Part shown: in pieces, positions 38,178 to 62,748 of the stretch
Position numbering within the stretch: position 1 is the first letter of the stretch
Layout: each line of letters begins with the position of its first letter
Source: Calditrichia bacterium
GTDB taxonomy: Bacteria > Calditrichota > Calditrichia > RBG-13-44-9 > J075
NCBI GenBank assembly: GCA_050633245.1
Contig: JBOEGD010000004.1
Span: forward strand, 1 to 64,000
Direction: 5' to 3'
Length of the DNA: 64,000 nt
Position numbers and translations under genes: made by a program
Notes under the pieces: model-generated
Seen by the model: the letters and a program-made list of their open reading frames with translations, nothing else
Databases searched by the model: none
Told to the model about the DNA's origin: nothing

Positions 38178-38230
38178 CTGGTATTACGGGAGTTTGTTTG
38201 TATTACATCCGCATTATGTGTTCTGAAAAC

Positions 38231-44235: not shown

Positions 44236-44299
44236 TAATTAGCTCCCGTAATAAATAAAAAGTATGTTATAAAAACCGGTATTAACTTACCGGAGCTGT

Positions 44300-44337: not shown

Positions 44338-44482
44338 ATTAAGTCACTTCTGGTGTTGCATTTATCAAAGTGAATAGCTTGTAAGGGGTTGATAAATTGT
44401 TGCTTAGGTGAGATTGAGGCTGTGTTGCAGTTTAATTGATGGGCTGCAACATAAAGGATATGATATATGAGAGGAAGAGGCG

Positions 44483-46264: not shown

Positions 46265-46305
46265 AGGTAGTGACTGATATTCGTCTGCGCATAATGCGTG
46301 TCAAA

Positions 46306-46989: not shown

Positions 46990-47038
46990 ATCCCTATTCC
47001 ATTTTTTACTTCAAGTTGCTGGAATATAGAATCGGCAT

Positions 47039-47065
47039 GTTACAGTTTGATTGCAAGTCAATTAC
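47039..47065 (-). promoter_or_regulatory. Pho-box-like 11-bp-periodic repeats upstream of phoB (autoregulation)
   Basis: Plus strand GTTAC 47039, ATTGC 47050, ATTAC 47061. Confidence 0.55.
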
Positions 47066-47105
47066 TGTTTGCTTCAAAAGAGGTGTTCGTTTCGATAAAT
47101 GCCAA

Positions 47106-48017: not shown

Positions 48018-48107
48018 ACCTGATAATGCCCGGTCTGTAATAATGTTAAGTTATTTCTCCGAAACTCCGAGAGAAGCATACAGCGTGAGACAATATTAAA
48101 TTGTGGC

Positions 48108-49340
48108 CTATCTCTCCAAAATATACCCGATTCTTTCAAATTTCCCATCGATATTTTGAACTGGGTAGATGTTCAGTATTGCACAAAGTAGGGGATAGAG
48201 GTCAATTGTCTGTAAGGTGCCCGTCCGAAAATTGCGTCGAAAGCTCGGCCCGGCGGCGTAAAAAATACCGTGCATGTTTATTAAGTGTGGGCTATATCCA
48301 TGATTACCTTTGCCCGGCAGCCAGTCTCCTGATGCCCCGTGTAAGAGTGTCCACCCCGGTTCGGCGATAAGCACAATGTCGGAAATAAACGGATGATTTG
48401 AAAAATGCAGATGTTCAGGCACCTCTGCCCGTAAGTATGCTCTAAAGTGCGTCTCATTGTTTTTTAGAATCTTATAAATTCTATCTGTGTCACCGACTTT
48501 TGGCTGAACCATCATAATTGGACCGTCTGAGGTAAAGCGGCACTCTTCCGCAGACAGCAGGTCTTCCTCAATGCGAATAGATTTTTCCTTAAACGTCTCA
48601 ATCATTCCATGATCCGAAACGACGATGATGTCTGTTTTATCCAGCAAATTTTTCTGTGCTAGTCCATCCATCAACAGGCCGAGCATAGAATCCTGACGTG
48701 CAATGGCGAAGTTTACTTTAGGCGATTCGGGTCCGTAGTCATGTCCATAGCTGTCGGATAAATGAAAATACATGGTTATAAATTGCGGGCGTTCATTCTT
48801 AGGAAGACTTAACCAATTGAGTACGCCTATTACTCGGGTTTCAAAGGGACGATCATGATCGTACACTTCAAAGCGTTCAGGATGGCGTCCTTCCTGAACG
48901 ATACTGCTTGCAGGCCAAAAATAGGAAGCACTTTTAACACCCTGCTTTTGAGCGGTCTCCCATATAAACTCGCAATCGTACCAGTTGCCATTCCTTACAG
49001 CAGCCCGATTGCCGAGGGCATAGTCTGCTCCGGTAAACGGATTGATAAAGTCGTTCAGAATTATTCCATGGTTCTCCGGATAGAGCCCGGTGACGATCGA
49101 AATGTGATTTGGAAAGGTCTTGGTTGGAAAAACGGCTTTGAGTCCGGTTGCACTTACGCCTCGCTCTCGTAGTTTCTGCATATTTGGCGTCAGTCCGCGT
49201 TCGGGATAATCCCATCGAAAGCCGTCGAAAGAAATGAGAATAACGTGTTCAGATTTTCGCTGTGTATTTTGGCAATGTAGAGTTGAGATGAAGGTTGAGC
49301 AGACGAAAAGAGTAATTAGCAAAAAGATACGATTTTGCAT
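48108..49340 (-). CDS. Secreted nucleotide pyrophosphatase/phosphodiesterase (NPP, alkaline phosphatase superfamily)
   Basis: LISFDGFRWDY, FPTKTFPNH.SIVTGLYPE.HGI, D.YGH.YGP, VSDHGM, GNHGY. Confidence 0.93.
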   Translation of the reverse strand: MQNRIFLLITLFVCSTFISTLHCQNTQRKSEHVILISFDGFRWDYPERGLTPNMQKLRERGVSATGLKAVFPTKTFPNHISIVTGLYPENHGIILNDFINPFTGADYALGNRAAVRNGNWYDCEFIWETAQKQGVKSASYFWPASSIVQEGRHPERFEVYDHDRPFETRVIGVLNWLSLPKNERPQFITMYFHLSDSYGHDYGPESPKVNFAIARQDSMLGLLMDGLAQKNLLDKTDIIVVSDHGMIETFKEKSIRIEEDLLSAEECRFTSDGPIMMVQPKVGDTDRIYKILKNNETHFRAYLRAEVPEHLHFSNHPFISDIVLIAEPGWTLLHGASGDWLPGKGNHGYSPHLINMHGIFYAAGPSFRRNFRTGTLQTIDLYPLLCAILNIYPVQNIDGKFERIGYILER

Positions 49341-49359
49341 TTAGTTCTCTCCTTTTTTG

Positions 49360-49396
49360 AAAAAAAAGAGCCGACAACAAAACTGTTGCCGGCTCT
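49360..49396 (-). terminator. Rho-independent terminator between the Oar-like TBDR and the NPP gene
   Basis: agagccgacaaca / tgttgccggctct with an A8 tract on the plus strand. Confidence 0.8.
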
Positions 49397-49423
49397 AAAA
49401 AGATTATTCCAATTCAGAATTAC

Positions 49424-52400
49424 CTAGAAGGAATATCGCAGACCAAGCTGAACTCTCCAGCGAGAAAGCAGATTGTCTGTCAGGAAGATATCGTCAAAGT
49501 CCTGAACGCCGTCACCATTTCTATCACTTGGAGCGAAGAAACGAACTCCCGGCTTGCCTGTGACTTCATCATAACTGTTAAAGTCAAAGAGCTCATATGC
49601 TTGGAAGTTTACGAATTCCTGCTTGCCCCAGTCTTCGCTAAGAAGAGAGAGGAAGTTTAACACATCAGCAGTCAGCTCAAACTTCTGACCACCAAAGTTG
49701 AAATTTTGAGCAAGACGCAGGTCAAGCTGATTCAACCAAGGCTCATTCAGGAAGTTACGCGGTGCGATTCCACCACGAACAGCAGCAAGATCGTCGTTGC
49801 TGTTTAGGAATGCATCAAGTGCTGCCCAACCGTCGCCGGTTACTTCGGAGAGATCATCTTCGTTCAGCGGAACGAATGCCAGGTCATTGCTACCAAAGGA
49901 GCCGTCACCGTTTGCATCATTGTCGTACACCAGGCTAAATGGACGTCCGGATCGACCTTCATAGAATAGACCAAATGTGGTTCCGAAAGAGAATGAATAA
50001 GAGGCATTCAACAGAATGCGGTGCGGAATTTCAAAGTCAGAGACTCCTAATCCGGGATTATTCGGATCCAGAGTTTCATTGAACGCCCAGTTGGAAGAGG
50101 CGGTACTTGAGCGACCGGAGTTAACGTCACGAGACTGGCCATAGGTATAAGAAATACTACCAGCAAGACCAGGCATGAAGTCGCCACCGTTCAGCTTCTG
50201 AAGCTGAGCTGTCAGGTTATAGCGCCAACCTTTGGAGGAGTTATCCAGTTCATAAACACTGGTGAACTCATTGGATATCACGGCATTACGATCATACAAC
50301 GGCCGACCATCAGGTGCATTACCATTTGGTGCAAGCAGGTTGATGTTGCGAACAACCACGTCGTTGATTGACTGGCTAAATACACCTTCGAGTGTTAGAA
50401 TGGTGTTACCGGCCATTTTCTGATCCAGTCCCAGATTAGTTCGGAAAACCTGCGGCTGTTTGAAGTCTTCAGACGTAATATTGATTTCAGATCTTGAAAT
50501 CGGGCTCAAGTTCGGATTCGTTCCCGGACGAGGCTGATTGTTAGGATCGGTAACTAGACTTGGTACAAGATCGCCAAAGCGAGTTTGAGCATCTACACGA
50601 CCATATTCAACACCGGTGTTGGTATAAGCATTAGATAACCAAACGGTGGGGCTACGTCCCGAGAAGATACCAACGCCACCACGAAGCTGCGTTTCACGAT
50701 CGCCGGTTGCATCATAGTTAAAACCTACGCGAGGTGACCAAAGCACGTTGCCACTCGGTACATCTGTTGTGCTGCGACCTTCGAAAAGCTCACCAAAGCG
50801 CTCATTCTCGGAAGGTGTGTCCGGGAAAATCGGAACATCAGCACGAATACCATAGGTAAGAACAAACTGAGAATTCATCTTCCACTCGTCTTGAGCGTAC
50901 AGGCCGATTTGGTATGATTTCCAGTCTGCACTGGGAGTAGGATCGTTGGGATCCAGTGAATAGCTATAGCGATAGCGACTTGGAGTATTGCTGGCAAAAG
51001 CTTCAGCAGCAGATACTTCATTACCACTCGCATCTTCAAAAGAGTCGAACTCATAAGCGCCAAACAAATGCTGAACAAACAGGTTGTCGAAACGATAGAA
51101 TTCGTTGTGAGTTCCAACGGTGAATGTGTGATCACCGGAGAAATACACAAGGTCATCTGTAATTTCCAAAATATCCTGATCCAGTGAGTTGGCCTGAGAG
51201 GAACGCTCACTACCGAAAACAAAATCGATATTATCGGTGTCAACAGTGATTTCCGGGAATTTCGGGCCTTCGAGATTACGCGCATCGCGGATTGTAGAGA
51301 AAGAAGCGCGGAACATATTCGCTTTGTCTGAACCAAGGGTGCTGTTCCACTGAAGGACAGTGCTGTTAGTCACGCTATTGAAAACATAGTTCTGCGAGGA
51401 AAGACCGGCTTCGAAACCGTTACGATTAATACCACGATCCAACTCAGCATCCACAAAGTTGTGACGTAGCGTTAGCGTATTGCGGTTGTTCAGGTTCCAG
51501 TCTAAACGAGCAAAAGCCTTATTGTCATTGGTTCCCGCAGTATACTCATCAAAATTACCAGCTTCGTAGCCATAGGTGTTACGAGCGGTATTGATAATGG
51601 CATTACCATCGGCAGTTGCTTCGGCAAGGTCAGTACCAGTGAGCAAACCGCTCAGGCCGAGACGAGGATCGTTACGACGCTTAATCTCTGCATTTACAAA
51701 GAAGAACATCTTATTCTTTGCAATCGGGCCACCAATGCGGAAACCAGTCTGCAGCTCGTCGAACTCAGACAGTTCAGTCTCTGTATCACCAACGGTCAGC
51801 GTGCTCTTTGTGATGGACTGATTCCGACCAAAGCCGTATACAGAACCTTCCCAGGTGTTGGTTCCACTACGTGTTACAGCATTGATGAGGCTACCGGTGA
51901 ATCCACCAGAGCGCACATCATACGGAGCAACTGAAACGTTGAATTCCTGAACGGCGTCCAGGCTGATAGGCTGGGCATTCGCCTGGCCACCAGGAGTTCC
52001 ACTTGCTGCCAGACCAAAGGCATCATTAGTAACGGCACCGTCGATCTGAACGTTATTATAGCGGTTGTTCGTTCCACCACTGCTGGAACCACCAGTGTTG
52101 TCACTGGAACCAATGTTCGTTCCAACAATCTGCGGAGACAAACGAGCAAAGTCCTGGATACTACGCTCAATGCTCGGGAACTTCTGAATGGTTTCTTCAG
52201 TTACTGTGGTGTTGGCACCGGTGCGGGAACCGGACAGAATTTCATTTTGCTCAGCAACAACATCAACTGCCTGACCTTCATATGTCGTCTCGGTCAGTGT
52301 AAAATTAATAGTGCGGTTTTCCGTAATGGCAACAACCACGCCTTCGATGCTTTTGTCGGTATAACCAACATAGCTTACGCTGATCTCATAAGGACCACCA

Positions 52401-52612
52401 ACGCGAACGTTCGGAATGTTGTAGCGTCCATCAACGCGAGTCGATGAGCCATACTGACTTCCAGACGGTAAGTGAACGGCAACAACGTTAGCGCCTGCAA
52501 GCGCATTTCCATTGTTGTCGGCAACACTTCCGTTGAAGGAAGCAGTGGTAACACCCTGCGCGAAGAGGCCTACGGAAATCATCATAAAGAGTACCGTAGA
52601 GATTAACTTCAT
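49424..52612 (-). CDS. Oar-like TonB-dependent outer-membrane receptor
   Basis: CarboxypepD_reg N-terminus; NNRYNNVQIDG, PISLDAVQE..VAPYDVR.GGFTG..INAVTRSGTN, SPRVGFNYD, QLGLRYSF. Confidence 0.92.
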   Translation of the reverse strand: MKLISTVLFMMISVGLFAQGVTTASFNGSVADNNGNALAGANVVAVHLPSGSQYGSSTRVDGRYNIPNVRVGGPYEISVSYVGYTDKSIEGVVVAITENRTINFTLTETTYEGQAVDVVAEQNEILSGSRTGANTTVTEETIQKFPSIERSIQDFARLSPQIVGTNIGSSDNTGGSSSGGTNNRYNNVQIDGAVTNDAFGLAASGTPGGQANAQPISLDAVQEFNVSVAPYDVRSGGFTGSLINAVTRSGTNTWEGSVYGFGRNQSITKSTLTVGDTETELSEFDELQTGFRIGGPIAKNKMFFFVNAEIKRRNDPRLGLSGLLTGTDLAEATADGNAIINTARNTYGYEAGNFDEYTAGTNDNKAFARLDWNLNNRNTLTLRHNFVDAELDRGINRNGFEAGLSSQNYVFNSVTNSTVLQWNSTLGSDKANMFRASFSTIRDARNLEGPKFPEITVDTDNIDFVFGSERSSQANSLDQDILEITDDLVYFSGDHTFTVGTHNEFYRFDNLFVQHLFGAYEFDSFEDASGNEVSAAEAFASNTPSRYRYSYSLDPNDPTPSADWKSYQIGLYAQDEWKMNSQFVLTYGIRADVPIFPDTPSENERFGELFEGRSTTDVPSGNVLWSPRVGFNYDATGDRETQLRGGVGIFSGRSPTVWLSNAYTNTGVEYGRVDAQTRFGDLVPSLVTDPNNQPRPGTNPNLSPISRSEINITSEDFKQPQVFRTNLGLDQKMAGNTILTLEGVFSQSINDVVVRNINLLAPNGNAPDGRPLYDRNAVISNEFTSVYELDNSSKGWRYNLTAQLQKLNGGDFMPGLAGSISYTYGQSRDVNSGRSSTASSNWAFNETLDPNNPGLGVSDFEIPHRILLNASYSFSFGTTFGLFYEGRSGRPFSLVYDNDANGDGSFGSNDLAFVPLNEDDLSEVTGDGWAALDAFLNSNDDLAAVRGGIAPRNFLNEPWLNQLDLRLAQNFNFGGQKFELTADVLNFLSLLSEDWGKQEFVNFQAYELFDFNSYDEVTGKPGVRFFAPSDRNGDGVQDFDDIFLTDNLLSRWRVQLGLRYSF

Positions 52613-52707
52613 GAATCCTCCAATCTACTGATTAGTTTGTTTGCGTTTCAAAAATGACGAAACACGAATTAAGGTTCTGATTTAAGGTAGATATTACGGC
52701 AGGAGAC

Positions 52708-52734
52708 ATTAAAAAGCCATTGCAAACAGATTGC
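52708..52734 (-). promoter_or_regulatory. Pho-box-like 11-bp-periodic repeats upstream of the Oar-like TBDR
   Basis: Plus strand ATTAA 52708, ATTGC 52719, ATTGC 52730. Confidence 0.45.
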
Positions 52735-52975
52735 GATGACGTAAATCTGATCCCCTAACTCATAATCGCTCCACCGATAATAAGCGCAAAAAGTTACTGT
52801 GCACGGTAGTCTTATTCAAGAAAAAATAAAGAAATAGAGATATCTTGAAAATATTCATTAAAGTGCTGTTTATCTGTCCTTTAGGTGGTCTTCTTGCAGG
52901 CGTTGTGCAAAGCTTTTTCAAGCATTTGCACATTAAGGCGTCGACTTTCGACTACAATAGCAGATATTTAGTCCA

Positions 52976-54187
52976 CTATTTTTCGGGGTGAAAGCGTGGG
53001 AACGAAGAAACTTGCATGATGTCTGCGATCTTTTTCGGAATCCGAGTGTTGTCGTACATTCCGGTAAATTTTAGACATTGAGGGCCGTATGCAAAAACCG
53101 CAACCGGTTCGGCAGTATGATAATCTGTGGTCCAACCAAAGGTTAAATCTGATCCGTCATTGTTGCCACCATGCAGTCCCATGCCGCCGGTCTCATGATC
53201 TGCTGTTACAACAACCAGTGTCTGTCCGTCGTTTTTAGCAAAGTCAAGAGCGTATTTCACAGCCTCATCAAATGCGATCATCTCGCGTATAACATACTCC
53301 GGATCATTATTATGCCCGCCCCAGTCAATCTGGCTTCCTTCCACCATAAGGAAGAAGCCCTTTTCGCTGTCCTTTAGCAGGTTAAGCGCTTTTTCTGTCA
53401 TCTGTTTTACCGTAGGCTCGTGAGCATCGTTCTTCAATCCGCTTGCGGCGAACAAACCAAGCACATCGCCATTTTCTATTTGCCGCATTTCATCGGCAGA
53501 CATAGCCAGCTGGTAGCCATTAGTTGTGGCCTCTTGTAATAGGTTGCGTTCATCTGGTCGTCTTGAGAGCGTGTCTGACTTCGGTATAAAAAAGGATTTT
53601 CCGCCCCCAAGCATTACGTTTACGCCGGAAGCAATTAGCTGCCGCGCGATAATGGGTTCAAACTTGCGTGATGTTACGTGTGTGGCAAAACAGGCGGGGG
53701 TTGCATGAGTAATGGAAGACGTCGATACCAGGCCCGTCTTCATGCCCAAATCTTGTGAAATTTGAAGTAGGCTTACCGGTTTTCTTCCGTCCGGCAGCAT
53801 GCCGATCATACCATTGTTGGTCTTAACGCCGCTGGCCAATGCTGTTGCGCTGGCAGCTGAATCGGTCACTAATTTGTCCTTTGCATGCGTATGGACGATT
53901 CCGGTTACCGGCATTTTTTCAATCGCCAGCGTTCCATCTGCACCGTTTGCGGTAATACGTCCGGCACTCATTTGTGTTAGACCCATCCCATCACCGATAA
54001 GAAAAATAATGTTTTTGATGGGGCCGTCTTGGGGGATAGGGTATTCGCTTAGCGTTGCATCTGGTAAGGCGTATCGAGCAACGGGTGCATCTTGCTTAAT
54101 TACATTGGAGCTGCAGCTGCTTATCAGTACCCCAATTGAGGCGCTGCTGATAAATAGCAATTTTGCAAGGTGAGTAATGCGTTTCAT
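52976..54187 (-). CDS. phoA: Alkaline phosphatase PhoA-type lipoprotein
   Basis: IFLIGDGMG, VTDSAASATA (catalytic Ser), THATPA, VEGSQIDWGGH, TADHETGG, HT; lipobox ISSC. Confidence 0.93.
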   Translation of the reverse strand: MKRITHLAKLLFISSASIGVLISSCSSNVIKQDAPVARYALPDATLSEYPIPQDGPIKNIIFLIGDGMGLTQMSAGRITANGADGTLAIEKMPVTGIVHTHAKDKLVTDSAASATALASGVKTNNGMIGMLPDGRKPVSLLQISQDLGMKTGLVSTSSITHATPACFATHVTSRKFEPIIARQLIASGVNVMLGGGKSFFIPKSDTLSRRPDERNLLQEATTNGYQLAMSADEMRQIENGDVLGLFAASGLKNDAHEPTVKQMTEKALNLLKDSEKGFFLMVEGSQIDWGGHNNDPEYVIREMIAFDEAVKYALDFAKNDGQTLVVVTADHETGGMGLHGGNNDGSDLTFGWTTDYHTAEPVAVFAYGPQCLKFTGMYDNTRIPKKIADIMQVSSFPRFHPEK

Positions 54188-54262: not shown

Positions 54263-54739
54263 TTAGACAAAAGTTTTCACAATTTCTTTATGAATGCCCT
54301 GCAAATCTGCGTAAGCGCGATTAATTTGTTCAACTTTCTCCTGCAATTTTTTCATTAGCAACTGCTTCTCAAGGCCATTGCGCAGGATAATCAGAAGGTC
54401 ATCATTGTCCCATGGTTTTTCGAGATATTGGTAGAGACCGACCTCATTTATCGCTTTAATAGCATTTTCTTTATCTGCGTATCCGGTCAGAATAATTCGC
54501 GGGATCTCCGGTTTGGCGTCTCTTACGTGTCCCAGGAAGGTTATGCCATCCATTTCAGGCATCAGATAGTCTGATACCACAAGGTCAACTTCCGAGGAGG
54601 TAATATAATCCAGAGCTTCTTTTGCAGAAGTAAAGGTATGTACATCGTATTCTGTCTCCAGCATTAAAAAAGAGCTGAGGCTGGTCAGCACCATCTCTTC
54701 ATCATCTACGAGCACAATAACTGCATTCTCATCTGCCAT
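54263..54739 (-). CDS. Receiver-only response regulator with a short C-terminal coiled coil
   Basis: VLVDDE, VSDYLMPEMDG, IILTGYAD, YLEKPWD; CAGGAG SD. Track start 54790. Confidence 0.9.
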   Translation of the reverse strand: MADENAVIVLVDDEEMVLTSLSSFLMLETEYDVHTFTSAKEALDYITSSEVDLVVSDYLMPEMDGITFLGHVRDAKPEIPRIILTGYADKENAIKAINEVGLYQYLEKPWDNDDLLIILRNGLEKQLLMKKLQEKVEQINRAYADLQGIHKEIVKTFV

Positions 54740-54852
54740 TAGGCTTTCTCCTGTAAAATGTTGTCCTGCACACTCTTTTTTGCTGTTCAAACCGCTCGCT
54801 GGTCGAACCGACTCAAAAGATACATCAAACTGGTGCTCAATGCACCGTCAAT

Positions 54853-55665
54853 TTATTCAGAAGGCAAGAAAATTGTAAACATCGTACCTTCACCCGGAGT
54901 GCTCTCAACTTCTATACGACCCTTATGCAGGTCTATCAGCTTCTTAACGATAATCAAACCCATACCCATGCCGCTATCTCTGGTCGTATGCCCATCGCTA
55001 AACAATCCGGCAAGGCGACTGTTTTCGATTCCTACACCGGTATCGCGTATCGAGATAACGACCTCACCGGCTACTGATTTTACAACAATCCAGATGTTAC
55101 CTTTGTGCTCGATTGCCTGACAGGCGTTGGCAAGAAGATTGAGAAATATCTGTCCGAGCCTGCCGGGATACCCTTTGACACTGGCTTTTTCGACGTCTGT
55201 ATGTACCTCGATGCGTCCTTTAGTCTCGTGCCTTAATATAACAAGTGCGTCTTTTATCAACTGCTCAATATCAACAGAAACCGGCTCCTGTTTATTGCCG
55301 CGGGCATAGCTCCTAACGCTTTGCACTACTTCATGAATTCGTTTGCAGGCTGTTCTGTTAACGCCTGTGAGCTGTTCAACCATCGCCATCATTTTCAAGA
55401 TTTTTTCTGCCGACGGTTCGGGCAAATTATCGTCATCGGTGACAGTGTTACGAATCTTATCGACTACTCGATCAAAAACCTCGACATTGTTTTTTATGGC
55501 GGCAATCGGTGTATTGATTTCGTGAATGATACCTGCGAGCAATTGTCCTAAAAGAGCCAGCTTTTCAGAACCAACCAACTGTGTTCGCATTGCTTCGAGC
55601 CTTATCAGGGTTTCCTGATGTTGCTTTAGCAGCTCTTCATGCGTCAATTTGTCTAGATTCTTCAC
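54853..55665 (-). CDS. Cytoplasmic histidine kinase with no sensor domain
   Basis: EKLALLGQLLAGIIHEINTP, QIFLNLLANACQA, DTGVGI, GMGMGL; no TM. Confidence 0.9.
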   Translation of the reverse strand: MKNLDKLTHEELLKQHQETLIRLEAMRTQLVGSEKLALLGQLLAGIIHEINTPIAAIKNNVEVFDRVVDKIRNTVTDDDNLPEPSAEKILKMMAMVEQLTGVNRTACKRIHEVVQSVRSYARGNKQEPVSVDIEQLIKDALVILRHETKGRIEVHTDVEKASVKGYPGRLGQIFLNLLANACQAIEHKGNIWIVVKSVAGEVVISIRDTGVGIENSRLAGLFSDGHTTRDSGMGMGLIIVKKLIDLHKGRIEVESTPGEGTMFTIFLPSE

Positions 55666-55704
55666 TCTAAATCCACAGTTAATAAAACGTTTACAGGCGC
55701 TTTG

Positions 55705-56145
55705 TTATCGAGATACCGGTGCTCCGGAAAATGTATTCATCAGGGTGCGCATGCGTTTAACAGCTGTTTTGAAAACGCCCCGTGTAATCTGGATATGGTC
55801 GGAAAGTAAATCAAAAAAATCTTCTTTATCAATGCGAAGCAGCAAGCATTCGCTGGTTGGTGTTGCGGTAACCACGCGAGGAGCTTCATCAAAAAGCGCC
55901 CAGGTACCAAAGGCTTCCTTTGGGCCGGCAGTGGTTATTTCACGATCACCTTGATGCAACCGGACATGGCCTTCAAGGACCAAATAAAGCGCATCTGAAT
56001 TCTCGGATTCGCGATAAATAATTTCATCGGCACTGTAGGGAACTTCTTCAGCAATTGCAGCGAGATAAGACAGATCTTCCGTTGGAACATCGGAGAATAC
56101 GTCTACATTTTGCAGAAAAATAACTTTTTCAATTATGGTTAACAT
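55705..56145 (-). CDS. Stand-alone cyclic-nucleotide-binding domain protein
   Basis: EKVIFLQNVDVFS, LYLVLEGHV, FGTWALFDEAPR..TA, LLRIDKEDF. Confidence 0.88.
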   Translation of the reverse strand: MLTIIEKVIFLQNVDVFSDVPTEDLSYLAAIAEEVPYSADEIIYRESENSDALYLVLEGHVRLHQGDREITTAGPKEAFGTWALFDEAPRVVTATPTSECLLLRIDKEDFFDLLSDHIQITRGVFKTAVKRMRTLMNTFSGAPVSR

Positions 56146-56272
56146 AGCTTCCCAAAAAGAAATAACACTATTTATTTATGCGACAGTAATACCAAAAGTA
56201 TACGGTTTTCTTCGCTTCAAATCCAACGCATTGTTTCTTTATTTGTTTCCGGCAGCCGATATAAATCACAAG

Positions 56273-57496
56273 TTATTTGCCAAAACGCAGTGCTTCCAGA
56301 AGAGACATTTCACCATCGTCCTCCCGCGGAGCCAGCCAGGTCTCTATCAGAAGGCTGTCTGAAGTTACTTGAACTTCAGTGAAATGGTAGTCACTTAATT
56401 GGCGAACATTTTCAGCCTCAATTCCAAACGCTGCCAGATCTTGCTCACGTTGAAGAATCAACTGCTCCCCAGCTTCAGCTCGTAGCGGAACCCCGCCACT
56501 GCTACTGATAACAATATGCAATTCTCGTCCGGCAAGATCAGGACGCGTTTTATCCCGCTTAACAATATTGTGTTCGTAGAGATGTTCATGACCGGTGAAG
56601 ACAACCTGCACGTTATTTTCCAACAGGCGATCTATAAAGCGAATTCGTTTTTCATTCAAATCGCTTCCATAGTCTGCACGCAGCCAGTTGCTATAGTGTC
56701 TTCCAAACGACACGGGAGGATGATGCATTGCCACGATTTTAAAGCGTTTGTCTGCAAAACGGATTAATTGCTGCTCCAGCCAGGATGGCTTAAGCGAATC
56801 ATCGGATACAAAATACTGAGAAAACAGCGTTTCTTGAATTTGATCTGCAATGTCGTTTTTTTGATCGACCAAATAGTTAGAATCGAGGCAAATAAGCACG
56901 GCATCCTTAAATTCCAAGGCGTAAAAAGGAGGCCTGTTAAAAACCGCCTTATAGTTTGCTTCGCCTTGTGGATTCGCTGTGCGATCGTGATTTCCAGGCA
57001 CGGTTACGATTGGCACCGAGTTGAACAGCGGCGTCTGATTGCGGTTCTCTTCAATAAAGTATTTCCAGTGCAGTGGTCGTGTGCCATCACTGGCGCAGAG
57101 ATCACCCAAAATAAGCAGAAAATCGTTGTTGTTGCTTATTGCGCGATTATAGAGGGTATTTCGCATGTGGTCGCGAAAGGTGGGATGATACTCCGGGCGC
57201 TTGGTCAAAAAACGCAGGCCCCCGGAAATGCCGTTGCTCAATAGATAGAGCTGGTAAAATGGAACCAGCGCCATCCATTTGGATTTCCAGTTCTCTCCAC
57301 GCAGGAACTTCTCGTTTATTCGCCAACCGCGCTGTGTGTCGCCGGTTACCAGAAAACGCGGGTTCTGCGTTTGCAGACTGTCTTCATTTAATAGATTCTT
57401 AACCTGATAAAAGTCTTGATCGTAATGATCTTTCAACTCGCCATGCCCCGCACATCCGGCGAGGAGAATGACAAACAACAACAGAAATCGTTTCAT
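56273..57496 (-). CDS. Calcineurin-like metallophosphoesterase lipoprotein
   Basis: Lipobox LAGC; TGDTQ, LGDL, PGNHD, MHHPP, FTGHEHLYE. Confidence 0.88.
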   Translation of the reverse strand: MKRFLLLFVILLAGCAGHGELKDHYDQDFYQVKNLLNEDSLQTQNPRFLVTGDTQRGWRINEKFLRGENWKSKWMALVPFYQLYLLSNGISGGLRFLTKRPEYHPTFRDHMRNTLYNRAISNNNDFLLILGDLCASDGTRPLHWKYFIEENRNQTPLFNSVPIVTVPGNHDRTANPQGEANYKAVFNRPPFYALEFKDAVLICLDSNYLVDQKNDIADQIQETLFSQYFVSDDSLKPSWLEQQLIRFADKRFKIVAMHHPPVSFGRHYSNWLRADYGSDLNEKRIRFIDRLLENNVQVVFTGHEHLYEHNIVKRDKTRPDLAGRELHIVISSSGGVPLRAEAGEQLILQREQDLAAFGIEAENVRQLSDYHFTEVQVTSDSLLIETWLAPREDDGEMSLLEALRFGK

Positions 57497-57517
57497 GTAC
57501 CGTCCAGTAGTCGTGCC

Positions 57518-59182
57518 CTATCGGCGAATCCCGATAAGTGTCCAGTTGTTTTGATCATCTGCTTCCAGATACACTGACACAGCTTTGTTCCAACCGCCGT
57601 CGGTTTTCTTTGCACTGATGCTCACTTCGTATTGTTCACCAGCCACCGCACTTACATCAGAAAGTAAGACGCGCCTTTCCGTCTGGTCTACCAACTTCTT
57701 TCCCATTATGCTGACCTGATATTCTGGCGAATCCATCAATCCGGTCTCTGCGGCAATATCGCGAAAAGCAAGTGCTGTTGCACCATCGGCTGTTTGTTCT
57801 AGCTGGAACTGATCGAGTGGACTGAGGCGATTGAAGGCATAGCGACCTACTTTATCCCGACGCTGAATAAGGGTCTGAAGAATGTAGGCCTCAGCTTGCG
57901 GATCTGAATATTGTCCCTTTTGCACTGCCAGGCGAAGCTGTTCATTGGTAAAAGACATAATAATGCGCGCAGCCCAAAAAGCATCTCTGGCCGTCATATT
58001 TTCAAAGGCCGGATTGGGAATTTGCGGCTTGTAGTCTTCAGGTTCAAAGGTTTCGGCATCAAATACACCAACTGCCGGATAGCGCGTTTTATCTTTGTTC
58101 TCCCACGGATGAACATAGAAGCCAAGAGTGACGAAATTAAACATCATTCGGTTCGGATCGAAATCATTCTCATGGCCTCGCCAAATGTGATTCGGACCCC
58201 AAGATGCGCTGCCCAGTGTTGCACCAAAGTCGATGAGATTATGTCTGACAAAAGAGCGGCCATCTTCCTCGATAAACATATCTAGACTGTTGCCGTCCTT
58301 TGTATCAAAGTGATTTAGCCAGGCACTGAACAATCTTAAGCCACGCAGTTCACGCCGATGCTGATGGGGAATGAAGTCGTTGGGATCATCCTTGCGCACG
58401 CCCTTATATTTGAAGGGCCCTAGCGGCTTACCAGGGAGCCACTTACTGGCAAGTGCCCGGATTCTTCCATCCGGTAGAAAGTCGACCTTTTCGAATAGTT
58501 TGTCCAGATCGCTTTCCAGCATTAAGCGCTTTTCACCTTTTTCATCGGTGAACTTTACGCCTTCACCCAATTTCAAAATCTTTGGGTGAAAAACGACAAT
58601 ATAGTTTTCAGGAACAAAATAGCCCATCGCGTGAAACAGAGTGGTGGAAACCACTTCAGCACCGGAGGCTATCTCGCGAAATCCTTTGGGATCAAATTTT
58701 ATCAGATAGCCATCGCCGCGGGAATCGCGAATAGCAAAACCGGGTGTTACCCCCTGGCTCTTGGCACTGATAATTGTCCATGCTGCTTCGGTGTCGGGGC
58801 CGGTTCCACGGTCGGGGCCTCTGGCAAAATCGTCCTCTGTGGCAGAGCTCAGGTGATGACGGTTTGTAAACCAGCTGGAATTGAAAACTTCGTCAAAAGC
58901 ATCCACGTTGAATGCTTCTTTTGGCTTATTGAAAAGTCTGCGGCCGGCTCGGGACAGACTGAGGCCTTCTTCAATTTGAAGGCTGAACACTTTATCAAAG
59001 CTTTCTGCCGCAGGAATGATTTTCTGTTCCGCCGGCTCAGCAATATTTTCCATGTCCGACGGTGGTCGAAGCGGTGCGGTAAATTGCTTCGAACTGCTGC
59101 ATGAGAATAGCAAAAGTGTTATCAGGCAAGCGATGATTAGTCTTACAGGTGATATATGCTTCATAAGAGAATCCTGATTCAT
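57518..59182 (-). CDS. Exported lipoprotein with a protein-kinase-like fold (hypothetical)
   Basis: Lipobox LFSC; KSQGVTPG, YLIKFD, GAEVV, NHFDTKDGN (HxDxKxxN), LIDFG. Confidence 0.75.
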   Translation of the reverse strand: MNQDSLMKHISPVRLIIACLITLLLFSCSSSKQFTAPLRPPSDMENIAEPAEQKIIPAAESFDKVFSLQIEEGLSLSRAGRRLFNKPKEAFNVDAFDEVFNSSWFTNRHHLSSATEDDFARGPDRGTGPDTEAAWTIISAKSQGVTPGFAIRDSRGDGYLIKFDPKGFREIASGAEVVSTTLFHAMGYFVPENYIVVFHPKILKLGEGVKFTDEKGEKRLMLESDLDKLFEKVDFLPDGRIRALASKWLPGKPLGPFKYKGVRKDDPNDFIPHQHRRELRGLRLFSAWLNHFDTKDGNSLDMFIEEDGRSFVRHNLIDFGATLGSASWGPNHIWRGHENDFDPNRMMFNFVTLGFYVHPWENKDKTRYPAVGVFDAETFEPEDYKPQIPNPAFENMTARDAFWAARIIMSFTNEQLRLAVQKGQYSDPQAEAYILQTLIQRRDKVGRYAFNRLSPLDQFQLEQTADGATALAFRDIAAETGLMDSPEYQVSIMGKKLVDQTERRVLLSDVSAVAGEQYEVSISAKKTDGGWNKAVSVYLEADDQNNWTLIGIRR

Positions 59183-59199
59183 TTTTAGTCGTTGGTCTT

Positions 59200-60495
59200 T
59201 TAGTCGATGCTTAGGATGAGTCGAAAGCCATCGGAGCTGAAGCCCACTTCAAATTTTGTAAGGAGCCCACTCTGCTTCCAAACGCGAAATCCCAATCCAT
59301 AAGTTACTTCCAGATTGTCTGCATTGAAACTGTCATACAGATCGGGAGTAACCTTGCCGGCATCGACAAAGAACAACGCACTTATGCTCTCTTTCGTCGT
59401 GCGATTGCGTAGCGGGAAGCGATACTCAGCAGAGCCTAATAGCATATCTTCATCATGAAAGCGACCTCGTGGAAAACCACGAACGGTTTCCTGACTACCA
59501 ATTTCACTTAGATAGTAGAACGGTATTTCTTTGTCGTCCCGGGCTGCAACATCTTCTGCCGCAAGGCGAAGAACTAATGTCCGCTCTTTGAACAAATTAA
59601 AGTGTTGGGATAGATCCACTCCGGTGCGCGTAAACCCGTATTGCTCTTCATCTCCCATTTGAGAATAGAGGCCGGTATGAAACGAAGCGAGAAATCCGCT
59701 GGATGGATTGCCAAGACTGTTTGTGCCATTATATTCCAGACTTATCGCAGCGCGTCCTAACTTGACACCGGTTTCGACACCGGAAAGCGTGGTCAGATCA
59801 AAAACTTCGCCGAGCTGATCACGAGTAGAGCTTCGTCCGGGCAGAATATTATTGATCTCATAACCGAAGGTCAAATCTGTTTTTAAGCGGGGCGTAAAGT
59901 TAGGACCAAGGTTTAACTCAAATGCCGCCATTTCTCGCGCGTAGTTTGCGCGATCTTCTTCAGGGGCATTGATGCCGACGCCAAAGAACGATTCATCCGG
60001 CATATTGTAATAGCCGGCAGATGCACCGATGACCAGATTTCCGTTCAGTATGGTAATGCGTTTTGCAGATAGTTCATATGCCTGTCTACGAAGTAGGCCA
60101 ATCGACGCTTTTGGCGTAAGACGGCCACCAGGCGTGATAAAGTCTTTCCAGAAGAACTTTAATCCAAACCCGCTGCGCGAAGAGTAAATGGGTCTCAGCC
60201 CGCGCTTACCATCATCTGAGGTTAGCGCACTCGCAATGCGAGGAAGCAAATGATTGTCATAAACTACAGCAATGCCTGAACTGGTGGCACCAAAGATCAG
60301 CCTAAAGGGGAGAAATATAATTTCCCCTGGTAAATCAATGACTTTTTCAAAATTGCTTTTCGATGTGTAATCACTTTTCTTTGCAGTTGCAGTTGAATCC
60401 TGAACTGCCTGCAGCGAAGAAATACCGAAAAGTAGCGATGTGCTCACGACGAGGCGCAATACATTAGCTCTAAGAAATTTGTCGAAAAACATCAT
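59200..60495 (-). CDS. Omp85/BamA-TamA superfamily beta-barrel without POTRA domains
   Basis: Signal peptide; IGSQETVRGFPRGRF, SAEYRFPL, FVDAGKV, YGLGFR. Confidence 0.85.
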   Translation of the reverse strand: MMFFDKFLRANVLRLVVSTSLLFGISSLQAVQDSTATAKKSDYTSKSNFEKVIDLPGEIIFLPFRLIFGATSSGIAVVYDNHLLPRIASALTSDDGKRGLRPIYSSRSGFGLKFFWKDFITPGGRLTPKASIGLLRRQAYELSAKRITILNGNLVIGASAGYYNMPDESFFGVGINAPEEDRANYAREMAAFELNLGPNFTPRLKTDLTFGYEINNILPGRSSTRDQLGEVFDLTTLSGVETGVKLGRAAISLEYNGTNSLGNPSSGFLASFHTGLYSQMGDEEQYGFTRTGVDLSQHFNLFKERTLVLRLAAEDVAARDDKEIPFYYLSEIGSQETVRGFPRGRFHDEDMLLGSAEYRFPLRNRTTKESISALFFVDAGKVTPDLYDSFNADNLEVTYGLGFRVWKQSGLLTKFEVGFSSDGFRLILSID

Positions 60496-60778: not shown

Positions 60779-61915
60779 ATGAAATCTTGCCAAACTGTTT
60801 TTTTCTCTATAATTCTTCTGACCTTTGCTGCTGTCAACTTTGGATTCGCAAAAGAAAAAAAGCAAATTGCTGGAAAAATGCCTGTTGAACGAACTGATTC
60901 AACCAAGACATCCTTTGTTGCGCTGCCTTATGCTTTTTACGCACCTGAAACCAACCTGGCTTTTGGAGCCGGAGTCTTTTATTCATATTTACAGACAGGA
61001 AGCAGGGTAGGGGGCAGACCGGCAACCGTGAAAAGTTCATTTACTTATACACTAAATAATCAGCTGCTTTTTGTCCTTTGGCCGGAGCTCTATTTTGATG
61101 ATGAGCGCTACTTCTTTGAGGCGTATTTGAATTACTTTAAATATCCCAGTCAGTTTTACGGCATTGGAAATAATGCAAATGACGAATTTGAGGATTATAC
61201 GCCGACAATCTACCGAGCCTGGCTAAATGGAATGCGCCGCGTGCTACCGGGCTTGTATGTCGGCGCAAAGTTTCAATATGAGTATACGCGGATTGATGAG
61301 TCAGAAGATCCGGCTGAGAACCCGATGGCCATTCTACGAAACGGCACGCTTGCAGGAAGTGAACCGAACCACATTGCGGGTCTTGGCGCTTCCATAGAGT
61401 ATGATACCCGAGATAACCTCAACTACCCTCTTGGAGGTCGATATTATCAACTTAGTGCAATTTTTCATGATGGCGCCTTCGGCAGCGACTATGCCTTTAA
61501 CAGTTTCTATGTAGACCTGCGAGAGTATTTACAGCTGACCGGTGATCATGTAATTGCGCTTCAGGCGGTATGTAGCCTTAAAACAGGAGACGTGCCGTTT
61601 CACCAGCAGTCGTTGTTTGGCGGTCAATTCTTAATGCGTGGATATTTACAAGGTCGCTTCAGAGATGATCAAATGGTCGCAGTACAGGGGGAATATCGAA
61701 TGCCGCTTTGGAAGCGATTGAAGTTGGTAACGCTGGTTGGGGCAGGTGAGGTCGCAGACAGCTATGGCAATCTACAGCTCAGTCGCTTAAAAGCGGCAGC
61801 GGGAATAGGTTTACGCTATCTCTTCTCGGCAAAGGATCGAATTCATCTTCGTGTCGATTTTGCCTTTCTCGGTGGGCAATTTGGGCCTTACGCCAATGTT
61901 TTGGAAAGTTTTTAG
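60779..61915 (+). CDS. Second POTRA-less Omp85/BamA-TamA superfamily barrel
   Basis: LPYAFYAPET..AFG, YDTRDN..YP..G, MRGYLQGRFRD, QGEYR, GIGLRY, terminal F. Confidence 0.85.
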   Translation: MKSCQTVFFSIILLTFAAVNFGFAKEKKQIAGKMPVERTDSTKTSFVALPYAFYAPETNLAFGAGVFYSYLQTGSRVGGRPATVKSSFTYTLNNQLLFVLWPELYFDDERYFFEAYLNYFKYPSQFYGIGNNANDEFEDYTPTIYRAWLNGMRRVLPGLYVGAKFQYEYTRIDESEDPAENPMAILRNGTLAGSEPNHIAGLGASIEYDTRDNLNYPLGGRYYQLSAIFHDGAFGSDYAFNSFYVDLREYLQLTGDHVIALQAVCSLKTGDVPFHQQSLFGGQFLMRGYLQGRFRDDQMVAVQGEYRMPLWKRLKLVTLVGAGEVADSYGNLQLSRLKAAAGIGLRYLFSAKDRIHLRVDFAFLGGQFGPYANVLESF

Positions 61916-62674
61916 CGGAAAACCTGTCACATCAAACCCCTTAATCGAGAACTGACGTTTTAGATTGCGAAACCAGCCATTGCGTGGCAACAGGTTGCGC
62001 TGTAGATTTTGGATAATGCGTTCTTTAAATATCGTATCGATAAAACGCTGCGGACTCGGCGCCAGAAAATAACCCCCTCCAATTAGTAAATACAGAAGCA
62101 GCGATAGCGGCACATTCTTCGAATCGAATAGCTTTAATGCTGTTCCAAAGGACTTCTTTATTTTCTTATTCTCAAGATCGACGCTAAAAATTTCATCGAG
62201 AATAAGATGAACCATATACCCAAAGAACACGAAGAAGCCAACTGCCCAAGACATCAGAGAGGTGTATGCCAGTGAATTGTAGCAAAATATTGTTGTAACA
62301 ATCCATGCGACGCCACCTGCCGGGACGGAGTGAAATAGACCGCGATGAACGGTGTACTTACTAAAAGCTGTAAAAATTACAAAGTTGATAACCAGATAGA
62401 AAACAATCCAGATAATCAGTAGCTCTGCGATGGAAAACAGGCTGCTCTGAATAAACATTAACAGGAATGAGAAGAAAACGGCAAAGATCCCAAAGAGCAC
62501 CTTCAGAATAATTGAATTATCTGAATCTACGTCTGGTAAAAGCCCGCCGATTGTGCCGGCTGTAAAGTAGACTAGCACATCTTCAGAAGACGCAATTTGC
62601 GCTCCGAGAAGTGATGTGGATAAGATACCGCTTAATGCAGCAGCAGTCGTTAGATGTGTTTTAAAGTTTGCCAC
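61811..62674 (-). CDS. Membrane-bound metal-dependent hydrolase (YdjM/DUF457-like)
   Basis: (M)ANFKTH, GGLLPDVDSD, HRGLFHS, GYMVHLILDE; GTG start at 62674 (track 62704). Confidence 0.85.
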   Translation of the reverse strand: MANFKTHLTTAAALSGILSTSLLGAQIASSEDVLVYFTAGTIGGLLPDVDSDNSIILKVLFGIFAVFFSFLLMFIQSSLFSIAELLIIWIVFYLVINFVIFTAFSKYTVHRGLFHSVPAGGVAWIVTTIFCYNSLAYTSLMSWAVGFFVFFGYMVHLILDEIFSVDLENKKIKKSFGTALKLFDSKNVPLSLLLYLLIGGGYFLAPSPQRFIDTIFKERIIQNLQRNLLPRNGWFRNLKRQFSIKGFDVTGFPLKTFQNIGVRPKLPTEKGKIDTKMNSILCREEIA

Positions 62675-62748
62675 AAATACATCATTGTTTTCGCGTGAAT
62701 GCAATATTCTTCTGTCCCGGCAAATGTTACAACATTACCGGCATATTT

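Follow-up and report, generated by a model that had tools for sequence, protein, structure and literature searches.

A POTRA-less Omp85 barrel, a kinase-like lipoprotein, a phosphoesterase and a small signalling unit form a conserved, hitherto undescribed gene set in a Calditrichia bacterium. Within the window (the whole 64,000-nucleotide stretch of DNA that was analysed), this set is a cluster of six co-oriented minus-strand genes at positions 54263-60495. In the ORF list, successive genes are separated by 17, 21, 127 and 39 bp, and then the histidine kinase (HK) and receiver genes by 113 bp with the receiver ATG at 54739 or by 62 bp with an upstream TTG. A phoA gene starts 75 bp past the receiver gene. 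A sequence-only reading had proposed these six genes and their domains, and the ORF list and the Pfam and NCBIfam profiles used for the domain calls bear them out; signal peptides and lipoboxes were assigned by eye. The same reading took the six genes for a single system, in which the kinase and the phosphatase would be a writer/eraser pair. The cluster instead consists of two conserved units that lie side by side in the window: the barrel (Omp85A) and the lipoprotein (KinL), with an occasional metallophosphoesterase (MPE), and a second unit of a cNMP-binding-domain protein (cNBD), a small HK and a receiver.

Next to the cluster is a divergently transcribed second POTRA-less barrel, Omp85B (60779-61915, plus strand; PF01103, 67.5 bits), which is 28% identical to Omp85A across 251 residues. 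Omp85B is not a conserved member: in none of 79 KinL loci (best 80 of at least 507 relatives) was a divergent barrel of this kind called. The gene for a YdjM-family membrane protein (61811-62704, minus strand; PF04307) is a syntenic flank, found directly 5' of Omp85A in L001/G068 and directly 5' of cNBD in G065.

The barrel-kinase pair

Omp85A (59200-60495, minus strand; PF01103, 62 bits) is a 431-aa Omp85 protein of the 'noNterm' type with a Sec-type signal peptide and no match to a POTRA domain among the Pfam profiles. Its AF2 model (pLDDT 88) has a signal helix, helices at 48-80 and 83-91, and then 16 strands, and the best Foldseek matches are the barrels of BamA and TamA (E 1e-11). The lid-lock motifs VRGF (338-341) and FVDAG (376-380) are present in the sequence, with R339, G340 and G380 invariant across 28 sequences; our own search found no longer relatives. 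In having a 16-stranded barrel and lid-lock motifs without POTRA domains, Omp85A resembles the noNterm proteins described previously (PMC4104836; PMC11358297). The accessible text of these papers describes their function as poorly understood and mentions no kinase-like partner, although lipoprotein genes lie immediately 3' of some of the Leptospira members LIC12252/12254/12258 (PMC11358297). Unlike those proteins, Omp85A has a conserved N-terminal helix that is predicted by co-folding to hold KinL.

KinL (57518-59182, minus strand) is a 554-aa lipoprotein (lipobox LFSC, Cys28) of an undescribed protein-kinase-like family, assigned by fold and motifs. It comprises an N-terminal region of docking helices, followed by a kinase-like core (about 126-453) and, at the C-terminus, an FN3-like sandwich (454-547). 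We found no Pfam or NCBIfam family for it, even at E<=10, and no PDB sequence match, while the family itself numbers 2959 representatives at E<=1e-3. Searches with the AF2 model (pLDDT 87.5) by VIA-align returned CtkA (Z 13.5), Fam20 (13.2), PI4KIIalpha (12.5) and CotH (12.4). The HxDxKxxN (291-298) and DFG (318-320) motifs are invariant across 24 relatives; in an alignment of 72 family sequences, K162, D293 and D318 are each kept in 71 and N298 in all 72, and the helix-C Glu is kept in 55 and replaced by Asp in seven more. The kinase motif claimed earlier from the sequence thus belongs to a real kinase fold with its catalytic residues. Like CtkA of H. pylori (3AKJ), the Golgi casein kinase Fam20C (4KQA) and Bacillus CotH (5JDA), which align over 231-262 residues with Z 12.4-13.5, KinL combines intact catalytic residues with a signal for leaving the cytoplasm. 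Unlike them, it is lipid-anchored, carries the docking region and FN3-like tail and has a barrel partner, and the identity is only 11-12%. We infer that KinL is catalytically active as a phosphotransferase and works on the periplasmic side of the outer membrane, where a protein, a glycan or a lipid might be its substrate; fold rank does not tell these classes apart.

The fold matches also bear on whether KinL is a lipid or sugar kinase that acts on the inner leaflet, LPS or other envelope glycans at the barrel, with MPE, PAP2 and patatin proteins as the matching lipid hydrolases. PI4KIIalpha, the lipid kinase MavQ (Z 10.4) and sugar-bound Fam20 score within about 1-3 Z of protein kinases, a PAP2 gene lies just 5' of the barrel in 4 of the 79 loci (best 80 of at least 507 relatives), and a patatin-Omp85 protein follows a paralogous barrel-KinL pair on contig C24. 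However, PAP2 and patatin are infrequent neighbours and the substrate class is not readable from fold rank, and we consider this explanation rather unlikely.

In 70 of 72 loci, KinL is directly preceded by a co-oriented Omp85A-like barrel gene; a match ending -200 to 600 bp upstream was accepted, and loci with at least 1300 bp upstream were counted (best 80 of at least 507 relatives). The choice of the best 80, which gave the 79 KinL loci, makes them lean to close kin; the locus records are labelled Calditrichota, Ignavibacteria, KSB1, Zixibacteria, Latescibacterota, Acidobacteriota and Gemmatimonadota. Because the adjacency recurs in this way, the pattern exceeds chance. The two genes overlap or are at most 20 bp apart in 45 of 56 called pairs, and a natural fusion in the order lipobox-KinL-barrel (P0121) was seen on four contigs. 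The second, paralogous KinL of the host genome, on C24, likewise lies 3' of a barrel that belongs to this family but is divergent (hhalign 99.2%, E 2.5e-19). The POTRA-less Omp85 barrel and the KinL lipoprotein are therefore an obligate gene pair.

Co-folding of Omp85A with KinL gave ipSAE values of 0.63, 0.64 and 0.60, as against 0.01 for the best control; the score expresses the confidence of a model, and the ipSAE mark is reached by 58 of 80 solved complexes versus 2 of 110 mismatched pairs. The runs share at least 85% of contacts (partner pLDDT 86), which involve residues 36-80 and the periplasmic turns 302-305 and 358-375 of the barrel, and residues 37-91 and 332-361 of KinL. The prediction thus places KinL against the periplasmic face of Omp85A, held by the N-terminal helix of the barrel. 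In the complexes BamA-BamD and BamA-RcsF, which were among the Foldseek matches, an Omp85 barrel likewise holds a lipoprotein on its periplasmic side. Omp85A differs from those BamA complexes in lacking POTRA domains to hold the partner and in having an enzyme as that partner, and a role in protein insertion is unsupported.

The earlier proposal that the kinase-motif lipoprotein is docked on, or exported through, the barrel holds for the pairing, and the co-fold favours docking at the periplasmic face over export. According to the export explanation, the barrel would be a dedicated type V-like translocase, as in PlpD or two-partner secretion, that carries KinL, and MPE with it, out to the cell surface or into the medium for an ATP-independent or host- or prey-directed activity. 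The Omp85-family proteins PlpD and FhaC are described as moving passengers (PMC4104836), fusion P0121 places the passenger first and the barrel second, and the secreted kinases CtkA, Fam20 and CotH are top fold matches. Against this, Omp85A has no POTRA domains, its barrel is like BamA and TamA and unlike TpsB, the lipobox is retained by KinL even in P0121, the co-fold sets KinL at the periplasmic turns, and a tight genome-level tie to inner-membrane carriers (below) better fits a periplasmic enzyme. We therefore regard export as improbable.

Phosphatases in and around the cluster

The MPE gene (56273-57496, minus strand; PF00149, 61.9 bits) encodes a 407-aa calcineurin-like lipoprotein with a LAGC lipobox and the motifs GD, GNHD and GHEH; weak PDB sequence matches are to Mre11 and purple acid phosphatases (E about 1e-4). 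Orthologues start 32-97 bp past KinL in 11 of the 79 loci (best 80 of at least 507 relatives), and MPE is present in 9 of 39 loci with full flanks. The phosphoesterase is thus accessory and not, as had been supposed, a core member. Fusions of Omp85 barrels to metallophosphoesterases, to which the sequence-only reading pointed, are published as PF00149-Omp85 proteins (Heinz and Lithgow 2014, PMC4104836). These 'Metallo' fusions, whose barrels are described as similar in sequence to noNterm barrels, and PlpD (type Vd secretion) likewise tie an Omp85 barrel to an extracytoplasmic hydrolase (PMC4104836), and the patatin-Omp85 of the host genome, which adjoins the second KinL pair, parallels PlpD. 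Unlike in the Metallo fusions, the phosphoesterase here is a separate and optional lipoprotein, and the constant partner is kinase-like.

The gene that follows the receiver encodes a PhoA-type alkaline phosphatase lipoprotein (52976-54187, minus strand; PF00245, 312 bits). Also downstream in the window are an OMP_b-brl_4 barrel, an NPP phosphodiesterase, a PhoB-like response regulator (RR), a PhoR-like HK, a TonB-dependent receptor and a PstS-like protein. These neighbours raise the possibility that the cluster belongs to a phosphate-starvation locus for scavenging nucleotides or organophosphates, with KinL as a nucleotide-binding or salvage enzyme rather than a signalling kinase. MPE, PhoA, class B acid phosphatase and NPP would degrade nucleotides or esters outside the cell, the products would cross the outer membrane through TonB-dependent receptors and the barrel, and NTT carriers would import nucleotides, the direction reported for characterised NTTs (PMC5381601). 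In each of the three other genomes of the family that were examined, the receiver precedes PhoA and/or class B acid phosphatase: phoA is 3' of the receiver in G065 too (58% identical) and is followed there by class B acid phosphatase, which comes after the receiver in G062 and G068, with a TonB receptor next in these two. However, PhoA occurs in none of the 79 KinL loci of other genomes (best 80 of at least 507 relatives). This makes the connection to phosphatases a local one, and the phoA neighbourhood is conserved only within the host's own family. Moreover, many loci have the barrel-kinase pair without a hydrolase or carrier nearby, binding or hydrolysis would not need a strictly kept kinase active site, and we know of no Omp85 barrel that acts as a nutrient channel. 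Scavenging is therefore an unlikely, though not negligible, explanation.

The signalling unit and its carriers

The second unit begins with a cytoplasmic, stand-alone cNBD protein of 146 aa (55705-56145, minus strand; PF00027, 63.6 bits). Its phosphate-binding cassette reads FGTWALF...PRVVTA, and 18 of 18 aligned orthologues have another residue in place of the usual Glu of FGE. The Pfam-assigned soluble HK (54853-55665, minus strand; 270 aa) consists of a coiled coil, HisKA and HATPase_c, with neither a sensor domain nor a hydrophobic segment; full-length orthologues of 274 and 276 aa (40-42% identity) lie between cNBD and receiver in G062 and G065. The receiver-only RR (54263-54739, minus strand; PF00072, 91.7 bits) is 158 aa long from ATG 54739, a start chosen because orthologues align there, within an ORF open to TTG 54790. 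It has a conserved C-terminal helix and retains the acidic pocket as well as the SDYLMP Asp, the T and the K residues; identity is 67-80% in loci of several phyla and 72-88% within the phylum.

These three genes had been read as a relay dedicated to the barrel, but they make up the regulatory tail of NTT-HEAT carriers, whose arrangement with an adjacent or fused cNBD is published (Major, Embley and Williams 2017, PMC5381601) and recurs in L001, G062 and many other loci; the window cNBD is 76% identical to its orthologue directly after NTT-HEAT in L001. The accessible text of that paper mentions no link to a receiver, small HK, Omp85 barrel or kinase-like lipoprotein. Unlike in such loci, the cluster in the window contains no carrier gene; the host genome has its carriers on contigs C8 and C1. 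Of 39 full-flank loci, 19 have an NTT-type gene no more than 10 kb from KinL, and the other 20, which lack one within that distance, all have a TLC match elsewhere in the genome (22 of 22 when L054 and L020 are added). The anticipated co-occurrence around KinL homologues thus held for the Omp85 barrel, and for MPE, cNBD and NTT in only part of the loci.

At the genome level, a TLC/NTT-family carrier is present in 39 of 39 KinL-bearing genomes tested and a TLC carrier in none of 14 control genomes, although some matches are barely above the cut-off (23 bits in G102 and G103). PF03219 matches occur in 17 of 17 KinL genomes of the phylum versus 4 of 69 KinL-free ones, in related and hence not independent genomes with the host's phylum as the KinL-free comparison set; in family f3, the same 4 of 17 genomes carry both.

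The two units could also be adjacent by rearrangement alone, the barrel-kinase-MPE and cNBD-HK-receiver-phoA genes having no joint function. In G065, a YdjM-cNBD-HK-receiver-phoA run lacks the barrel-kinase pair, which sits more than 2 Mb away, and pair, NTT-HEAT and signalling unit occupy three separate sites of one 6.28-Mb contig; the MPE and cNBD genes in the window are 127 bp apart. Yet among 39 full-flank loci, 13 have a cNBD gene and 13 a receiver gene no more than 10 kb from KinL, in several phyla, and 14 of 15 receiver-bearing genomes of the phylum also have KinL, which makes mere juxtaposition very unlikely.

Proposed function

The window may hold a reduced copy of a recurrent envelope module, the fuller order of which would be [sensor HK] [PAP2] Omp85-KinL-[MPE]-NTT-NTT-HEAT-cNBD-[HK]-receiver. 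We hypothesize, with about even confidence, a periplasmic kinase platform on the outer membrane that is fed or controlled through nucleotide carriers. KinL would phosphorylate a protein, glycan or lipid at the inner face of the outer membrane, and the MPE lipoprotein, here perhaps with PhoA, would remove the phosphoester or clear spent nucleotide. The TLC/NTT carriers may swap cytoplasmic ATP for periplasmic ADP to fuel KinL, and the cNBD-HK-receiver unit may gate them, probably via the HEAT domain. ATP is not known to occur in the periplasm, from which it would escape through porins. ATP export is a guessed direction, since characterised NTTs import. The off-cluster carriers of the host, the 20 of 39 loci without a carrier within 10 kb, the low frequency of MPE, the incomplete conservation of the helix-C Glu and the split arrangement in G065 count against the platform. 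A parallel is found in the Golgi and ER, where a luminal kinase is fed by an ATP/ADP exchanger. That the signalling unit accompanies ATP/ADP-type carriers elsewhere hints at ATP-driven chemistry outside the cytoplasm.

Gene cluster and its layout

Six co-oriented minus-strand genes are followed by phoA. In order, they encode an Omp85 barrel without POTRA domains (Omp85A, 59200-60495), a kinase-like lipoprotein that matches no Pfam or NCBIfam family (KinL, 57518-59182, lipobox LFSC), a Metallophos-type metallophosphoesterase lipoprotein (MPE, 56273-57496, lipobox LAGC), a cNMP_binding-domain protein (cNBD, 55705-56145), a histidine kinase with HisKA and HATPase_c domains but no sensor (HK, 54853-55665), and a response regulator with a receiver and no output domain (REC, 54263-54739). 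The phoA gene (52976-54187, minus strand, lipobox ISSC) begins 75 bp after REC. The three lipoboxes and the Sec-type signal of Omp85A were read by eye. Intergenic gaps from Omp85A to REC are 17, 21, 127, 39 and 113 bp; the last requires that REC start at the ATG at 54739, the start used by its orthologues, the frame being open to a TTG at 54790. The ORF list and the Pfam and NCBIfam assignments thus bear out the positions, gaps and domain types of the sequence-only reading. The gene gaps suggest an operon; a promoter and terminator scan found sites no more numerous than in shuffled sequence. A stem-loop that separates the stop of HK from the start of REC (54819-54846, minus strand) is likewise not above the shuffled level.

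Omp85A and its pairing with KinL

Omp85A matches PF01103 (62.2 bits, cut-off 24) and neither of the POTRA profiles PF07244 and PF08479. In its AF2 model (pLDDT 88), only helices 48-80 and 83-91 precede the first of 16 strands, and the top Foldseek matches are the barrels of BamA and TamA. The sequence contains VRGF (338-341) and FVDAG (376-380); among 28 sequences R339, G340 and G380 never vary, and at least 90% have F376. In the available portions of PMC4104836 and PMC11358297, the noNterm Omp85 subfamily is defined by a 16-stranded C-terminal barrel, the absence of POTRA or other folded periplasmic domains, and lid-lock motifs (loop 6, (V/L)RG(F/Y); strand 13, FxDxG). With these motifs, a predicted 16-stranded barrel and no folded periplasmic domain, Omp85A falls within this subfamily. 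We rejected two-partner secretion, as TpsB has two POTRA domains and Omp85A none; a TpsA partner would have a TPS domain, and KinL has no Pfam domain. We looked for longer Omp85A relatives with a fused domain and obtained none, so the fusion of a metallophosphoesterase to Omp85 cited in the sequence-only reading rests on the accessible text of PMC4104836, which in 2014 described a PF00149-Omp85 fusion as the 'Metallo' subfamily. On the other side of the cluster lie a second, divergently transcribed POTRA-less barrel, Omp85B, and the membrane protein gene YdjM; their ORFs are convergent and overlap by 105 bp at 61811-61915, and the C-terminus of this YdjM is about 45 residues longer than in its relatives.

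We compared the cluster with 79 related loci; at least 507 relatives were confirmed, of which these stand for the best 80, a choice that favours closer kin. They carry labels including Calditrichota, Ignavibacteria, KSB1, Zixibacteria, Latescibacterota, Acidobacteriota and Gemmatimonadota, and their neighbours were counted by tblastn because simple ORF calling was unreliable in some high-GC loci. Seventy-two of these best-80 loci extend 1300 bp or more upstream of KinL, and in all of them but two, L020 and L070, an Omp85A-like match on the KinL strand stops immediately ahead of KinL (70 of 72). Where pairs were called, 45 of 56 overlap or lie no more than 20 bp apart, an approximate figure since starts were taken from the longest ORF.

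The genome itself (G000) encodes a KinL paralogue on contig C24, 36% identical to KinL. It is preceded by a 459-aa protein that lacks a Pfam match yet belongs to the Omp85A barrel family (hhalign 99.2%, E 2.5e-19). This second pair (G000:C24:267166-275145; L088:8167-16146) is followed by a patatin-Omp85 protein (PlpD-like, 728 aa), a 7TMR-DISM histidine kinase and a HAD hydrolase. A natural fusion, P0121 (981 aa, on four contigs), joins a lipobox-bearing KinL (8-567) to an Omp85A-type barrel (601-975) that matches Omp85A 62-428 at E 3e-41. The candidate barrel-then-kinase fusion P0144 was set aside, as long stretches of it resemble out-of-frame translation of high-GC DNA. Barrel and kinase lipoprotein are thus a recurring unit, by adjacency and by natural fusion.

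Co-folding of Omp85A 31-431 with KinL 29-554 gave ipSAE values of 0.63, 0.64 and 0.60, against 0.01 for the best control; 2 of 110 mismatched pairs attain the pass mark, compared with 58 of 80 solved complexes. The runs share 85% or more of their contacts, and partner pLDDT was 86. The result is unlikely to reflect memorization by the model, as no solved complex includes a relative of KinL. The predicted interface comprises the N-terminal helix (36-80) and periplasmic turns 302-305 and 358-375 of Omp85A, and N-terminal helices 37-91 and residues 332-361 of KinL. The sequence-only reading had the kinase either docked on the barrel or exported through it. The co-fold supports docking of KinL on the periplasmic face, with export through the barrel as the rival explanation.

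KinL as a kinase-like family

Even at E<=10, neither Pfam nor NCBIfam has a model that KinL matches, and PDB sequence searches with the single protein and with a profile of 24 sequences were negative. AF2 models it with confidence (pLDDT 87.5, pTM 0.88), and both Foldseek and VIA-align recognize an atypical protein-kinase-like fold at about residues 120-455. The VIA-align Z scores are 13.5 for CtkA (rmsd 4.2, 231 residues aligned), 13.2-12.7 for Fam20, 12.5 for PI4KIIalpha, 12.4 for CotH, 11.0 for actin-fragmin kinase, 10.9 for HipT and 10.4 for MavQ; Foldseek assigns probability 1.00 to the same CtkA and Fam20 entries. Residues 454-547 form an FN3-like sandwich (Z about 8.5). The strand-3 lysine (K162), the HxDxKxxN loop (291-298) and DFG (318-320) lie where the fold expects them, in canonical secondary-structure order. 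Across the window and the 79 related loci (best 80 of at least 507 relatives), 72 KinL sequences were called; of these, K162, D293 and D318 are each kept in 71 and N298 in all 72, while the helix-C glutamate E176 is kept in 55 and is Asp in 7 more.

By predicted fold and motifs, we place KinL in the PKL superfamily and in no described sequence family among those testable. The tie to Fam20, CotH and HipA-CtkA is one of modelled fold, and the fusion P0121 has a weak HipA_2 match (E 0.13). Fold ranking cannot tell whether the substrate would be protein, lipid or sugar. A rival to the mechanism proposed below is lipid or glycan kinase chemistry, favoured by these fold ties and by the rare PAP2 and patatin neighbours.

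At E<=1e-3 the KinL family numbers 2959 of 1.84 billion cluster representatives, and at E<=1e-30 it numbers 869. The literature searched contained no description of a paired Omp85 and kinase-like lipoprotein; the 32 novel PKL families of KINtaro may include KinL. In P0122-P0143 (971-1164 aa), an N-terminal KinL is followed by a C-terminal extension of 420-610 aa without a Pfam family. The 23 long forms, P0121 included, keep the catalytic Asp in one case and the Lys in two, and P0122-P0143 look like a pseudokinase-like branch.

The cNBD-HK-REC unit and nucleotide carriers

The closest named relative among the matches listed, L001 (a MAG labelled Calditrichia, identical to G068:C21), has a gene for a 984-aa TLC/MFS-HEAT protein between MPE and cNBD. 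Clustering all locus ORFs gave a recurrent string, [sensor HK] [PAP2] Omp85 - KinL - [MPE] - NTT - NTT-HEAT - cNBD - [HK] - REC, in which NTT (about 440 aa) and NTT-HEAT (about 940 aa) are nucleotide carriers of the TLC/ATP-ADP-translocase type without and with a HEAT domain. Near KinL in the 39 loci with full flanks (best 80 of at least 507), NTT-type carriers occur in 19, cNBD, REC and an HK core in 13 each, and PAP2 in 3. Major et al. (2017, PMC5381601), in the portion available, report NTT-HEAT genes that have a cNBD gene a few bases downstream or are fused to one, and give the function as unknown. The window cNBD is 76% identical to that of L001, which follows NTT-HEAT, and REC is 80% identical to its L001 counterpart; given this orthology and the published arrangement, these window genes are the tail of that NTT-HEAT module. 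Here, unlike in the module as described in that portion of the paper, the carriers lie outside the cluster. The window cNBD is preceded at 127 bp by MPE rather than by NTT-HEAT, and the genome's own NTT-HEAT (G000:C8:28102-30990) and 488-aa NTT (contig C1) have no module neighbours.

The six genes had been proposed to form one system; synteny in two related genomes speaks against this. G062 has NTT-HEAT - cNBD - HK (42% identical, 274 aa) - REC - acid phosphatase B - TonB receptor. G065 has YdjM - cNBD - (one opposite-strand gene) - HK - REC - PhoA - acid phosphatase B, with its barrel-kinase pair more than 2 Mb away and NTT-HEAT at yet another place. From these differing layouts, the cluster comprises two separable units, and comparison of the sequences identifies the small sensorless HK as a conserved member of the second, cNBD-HK-REC. 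A rival explanation is that the two units are simply juxtaposed in the window; against it, among 86 genomes of the phylum, G000 included, REC occurs in 15 (E<=1e-40), 14 of which have KinL.

HK has the H-box IIHEINTP, and REC an acidic pocket and phospho-acceptor Asp, as expected of a two-component pair. REC is unusually conserved (67-80% identity across loci of several phyla, 72-88% within the phylum), and its C-terminal end is a conserved helix some 45 residues long. In the Zixibacteria-labelled loci L031 (6112-7317) and L033, a gene for REC-SpoIIE, a PP2C-type phosphatase, lies between the module HK and REC, with the barrel just downstream. The canonical phosphate-binding cassette of cNMP-binding domains begins FGE. 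Nearly all of 18 aligned cNBD orthologues read FG[T/V]W; the Glu is found in none and the Arg is mostly kept. As this Glu is replaced, the ligand may be other than cAMP or cGMP.

The link to carriers extends to whole genomes. In the phylum set, KinL is present in 17 of 86 genomes (E<=1e-20), NTT-HEAT in 21 (E<=1e-30) and the TLC profile PF03219 in 21. PF03219 matches all 17 KinL genomes and 4 of the 69 kinase-free genomes that served for comparison; within family f3, four of 17 genomes (G074, G079, G082 and G085) have KinL, and it is these four that have PF03219. Outside the phylum, a TLC match was found elsewhere in the genome for all 20 full-flank loci lacking a nearby NTT, and for 22 of 22 genomes when L054, whose carrier turned out to be nearby, and L020 are added, against 0 of 14 control genomes under the same search. 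Co-occurrence thus holds in 39 of 39 genomes, of which two have TLC matches of only 23 bits, and among which related genomes do not count as independent. Carriers occur without KinL, and KinL was never seen without a carrier in these 39 genomes.

Phosphoesterase and phosphatase neighbours

MPE matches PF00149 (61.9 bits, cut-off 21.5), distantly resembles Mre11 and purple acid phosphatases in sequence, and has GD, GNHD and GHEH, which we take to be the metal-binding motifs of calcineurin-like metallophosphoesterases. An orthologue lies 32-97 bp past KinL in 11 of the 79 loci (best 80 of at least 507), and follows KinL in 9 of the 39 with at least 8 kb on both sides. Of the proposed writer/eraser unit, barrel and kinase are constant, while MPE is by these counts a frequent accessory among closer relatives and not a core member.

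PhoA was found near KinL in none of the 79 related loci (best 80 of at least 507), including the 39 with full flanks, and a general phoA link was rejected. The surrounding region (37283-54187) is Pho-like, with a PstS-like binding protein, a TonB-dependent receptor, a PhoR-like HK (HAMP-PAS) and a PhoB-like response regulator; it also holds a GT2 glycosyltransferase, an NPP-type phosphodiesterase, a large OMP_b-brl_4 barrel and PhoA. This neighbourhood favours nucleotide or organophosphate scavenging as a rival function, and the tie to periplasmic phosphatases is local. Two proteins with Por_Secre_tail, the T9SS C-terminal sorting domain (33719-35320 and 38231-41188), fit an FCB-group organism.

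Proposed mechanism and implications

Building on the barrel-kinase pair, the kinase fold with its conserved active site, the predicted periplasmic docking and the carrier co-occurrence, we propose that KinL would be an active phosphotransferase at the inner face of the outer membrane. TLC/NTT carriers would bring ATP to it and take back ADP. MPE, or in this family also PhoA or acid phosphatase B, would hydrolyse the product or spent nucleotide, and cNBD, HK and REC would tune the carriers, plausibly via the HEAT domain. We consider this mechanism as a whole evenly poised between right and wrong. The fuller proposal, that some diderms carry out ATP-dependent phosphorylation in the periplasm, with a barrel-clamped KinL fuelled by carriers that send out ATP and take in ADP under cNBD/HK/REC control, is more doubtful, and we think it rather unlikely.

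To our knowledge, the periplasm is held to be ATP-free and there is no established periplasmic kinase system; the literature searched likewise contained no description of a carrier-fed periplasmic kinase. A widespread family of kinase-like lipoproteins (2959 representative clusters), paired with a barrel and carriers, would challenge that view. If the ATP-export reading is true, the system would parallel, in bacteria, the kinases of the eukaryotic secretory pathway and the ATP supply of its lumen, and would give a function to three orphan groups: the noNterm Omp85 proteins, the carriers (NTT and NTT-HEAT) that free-living bacteria possess, and the cNBD and receiver partners of these carriers.
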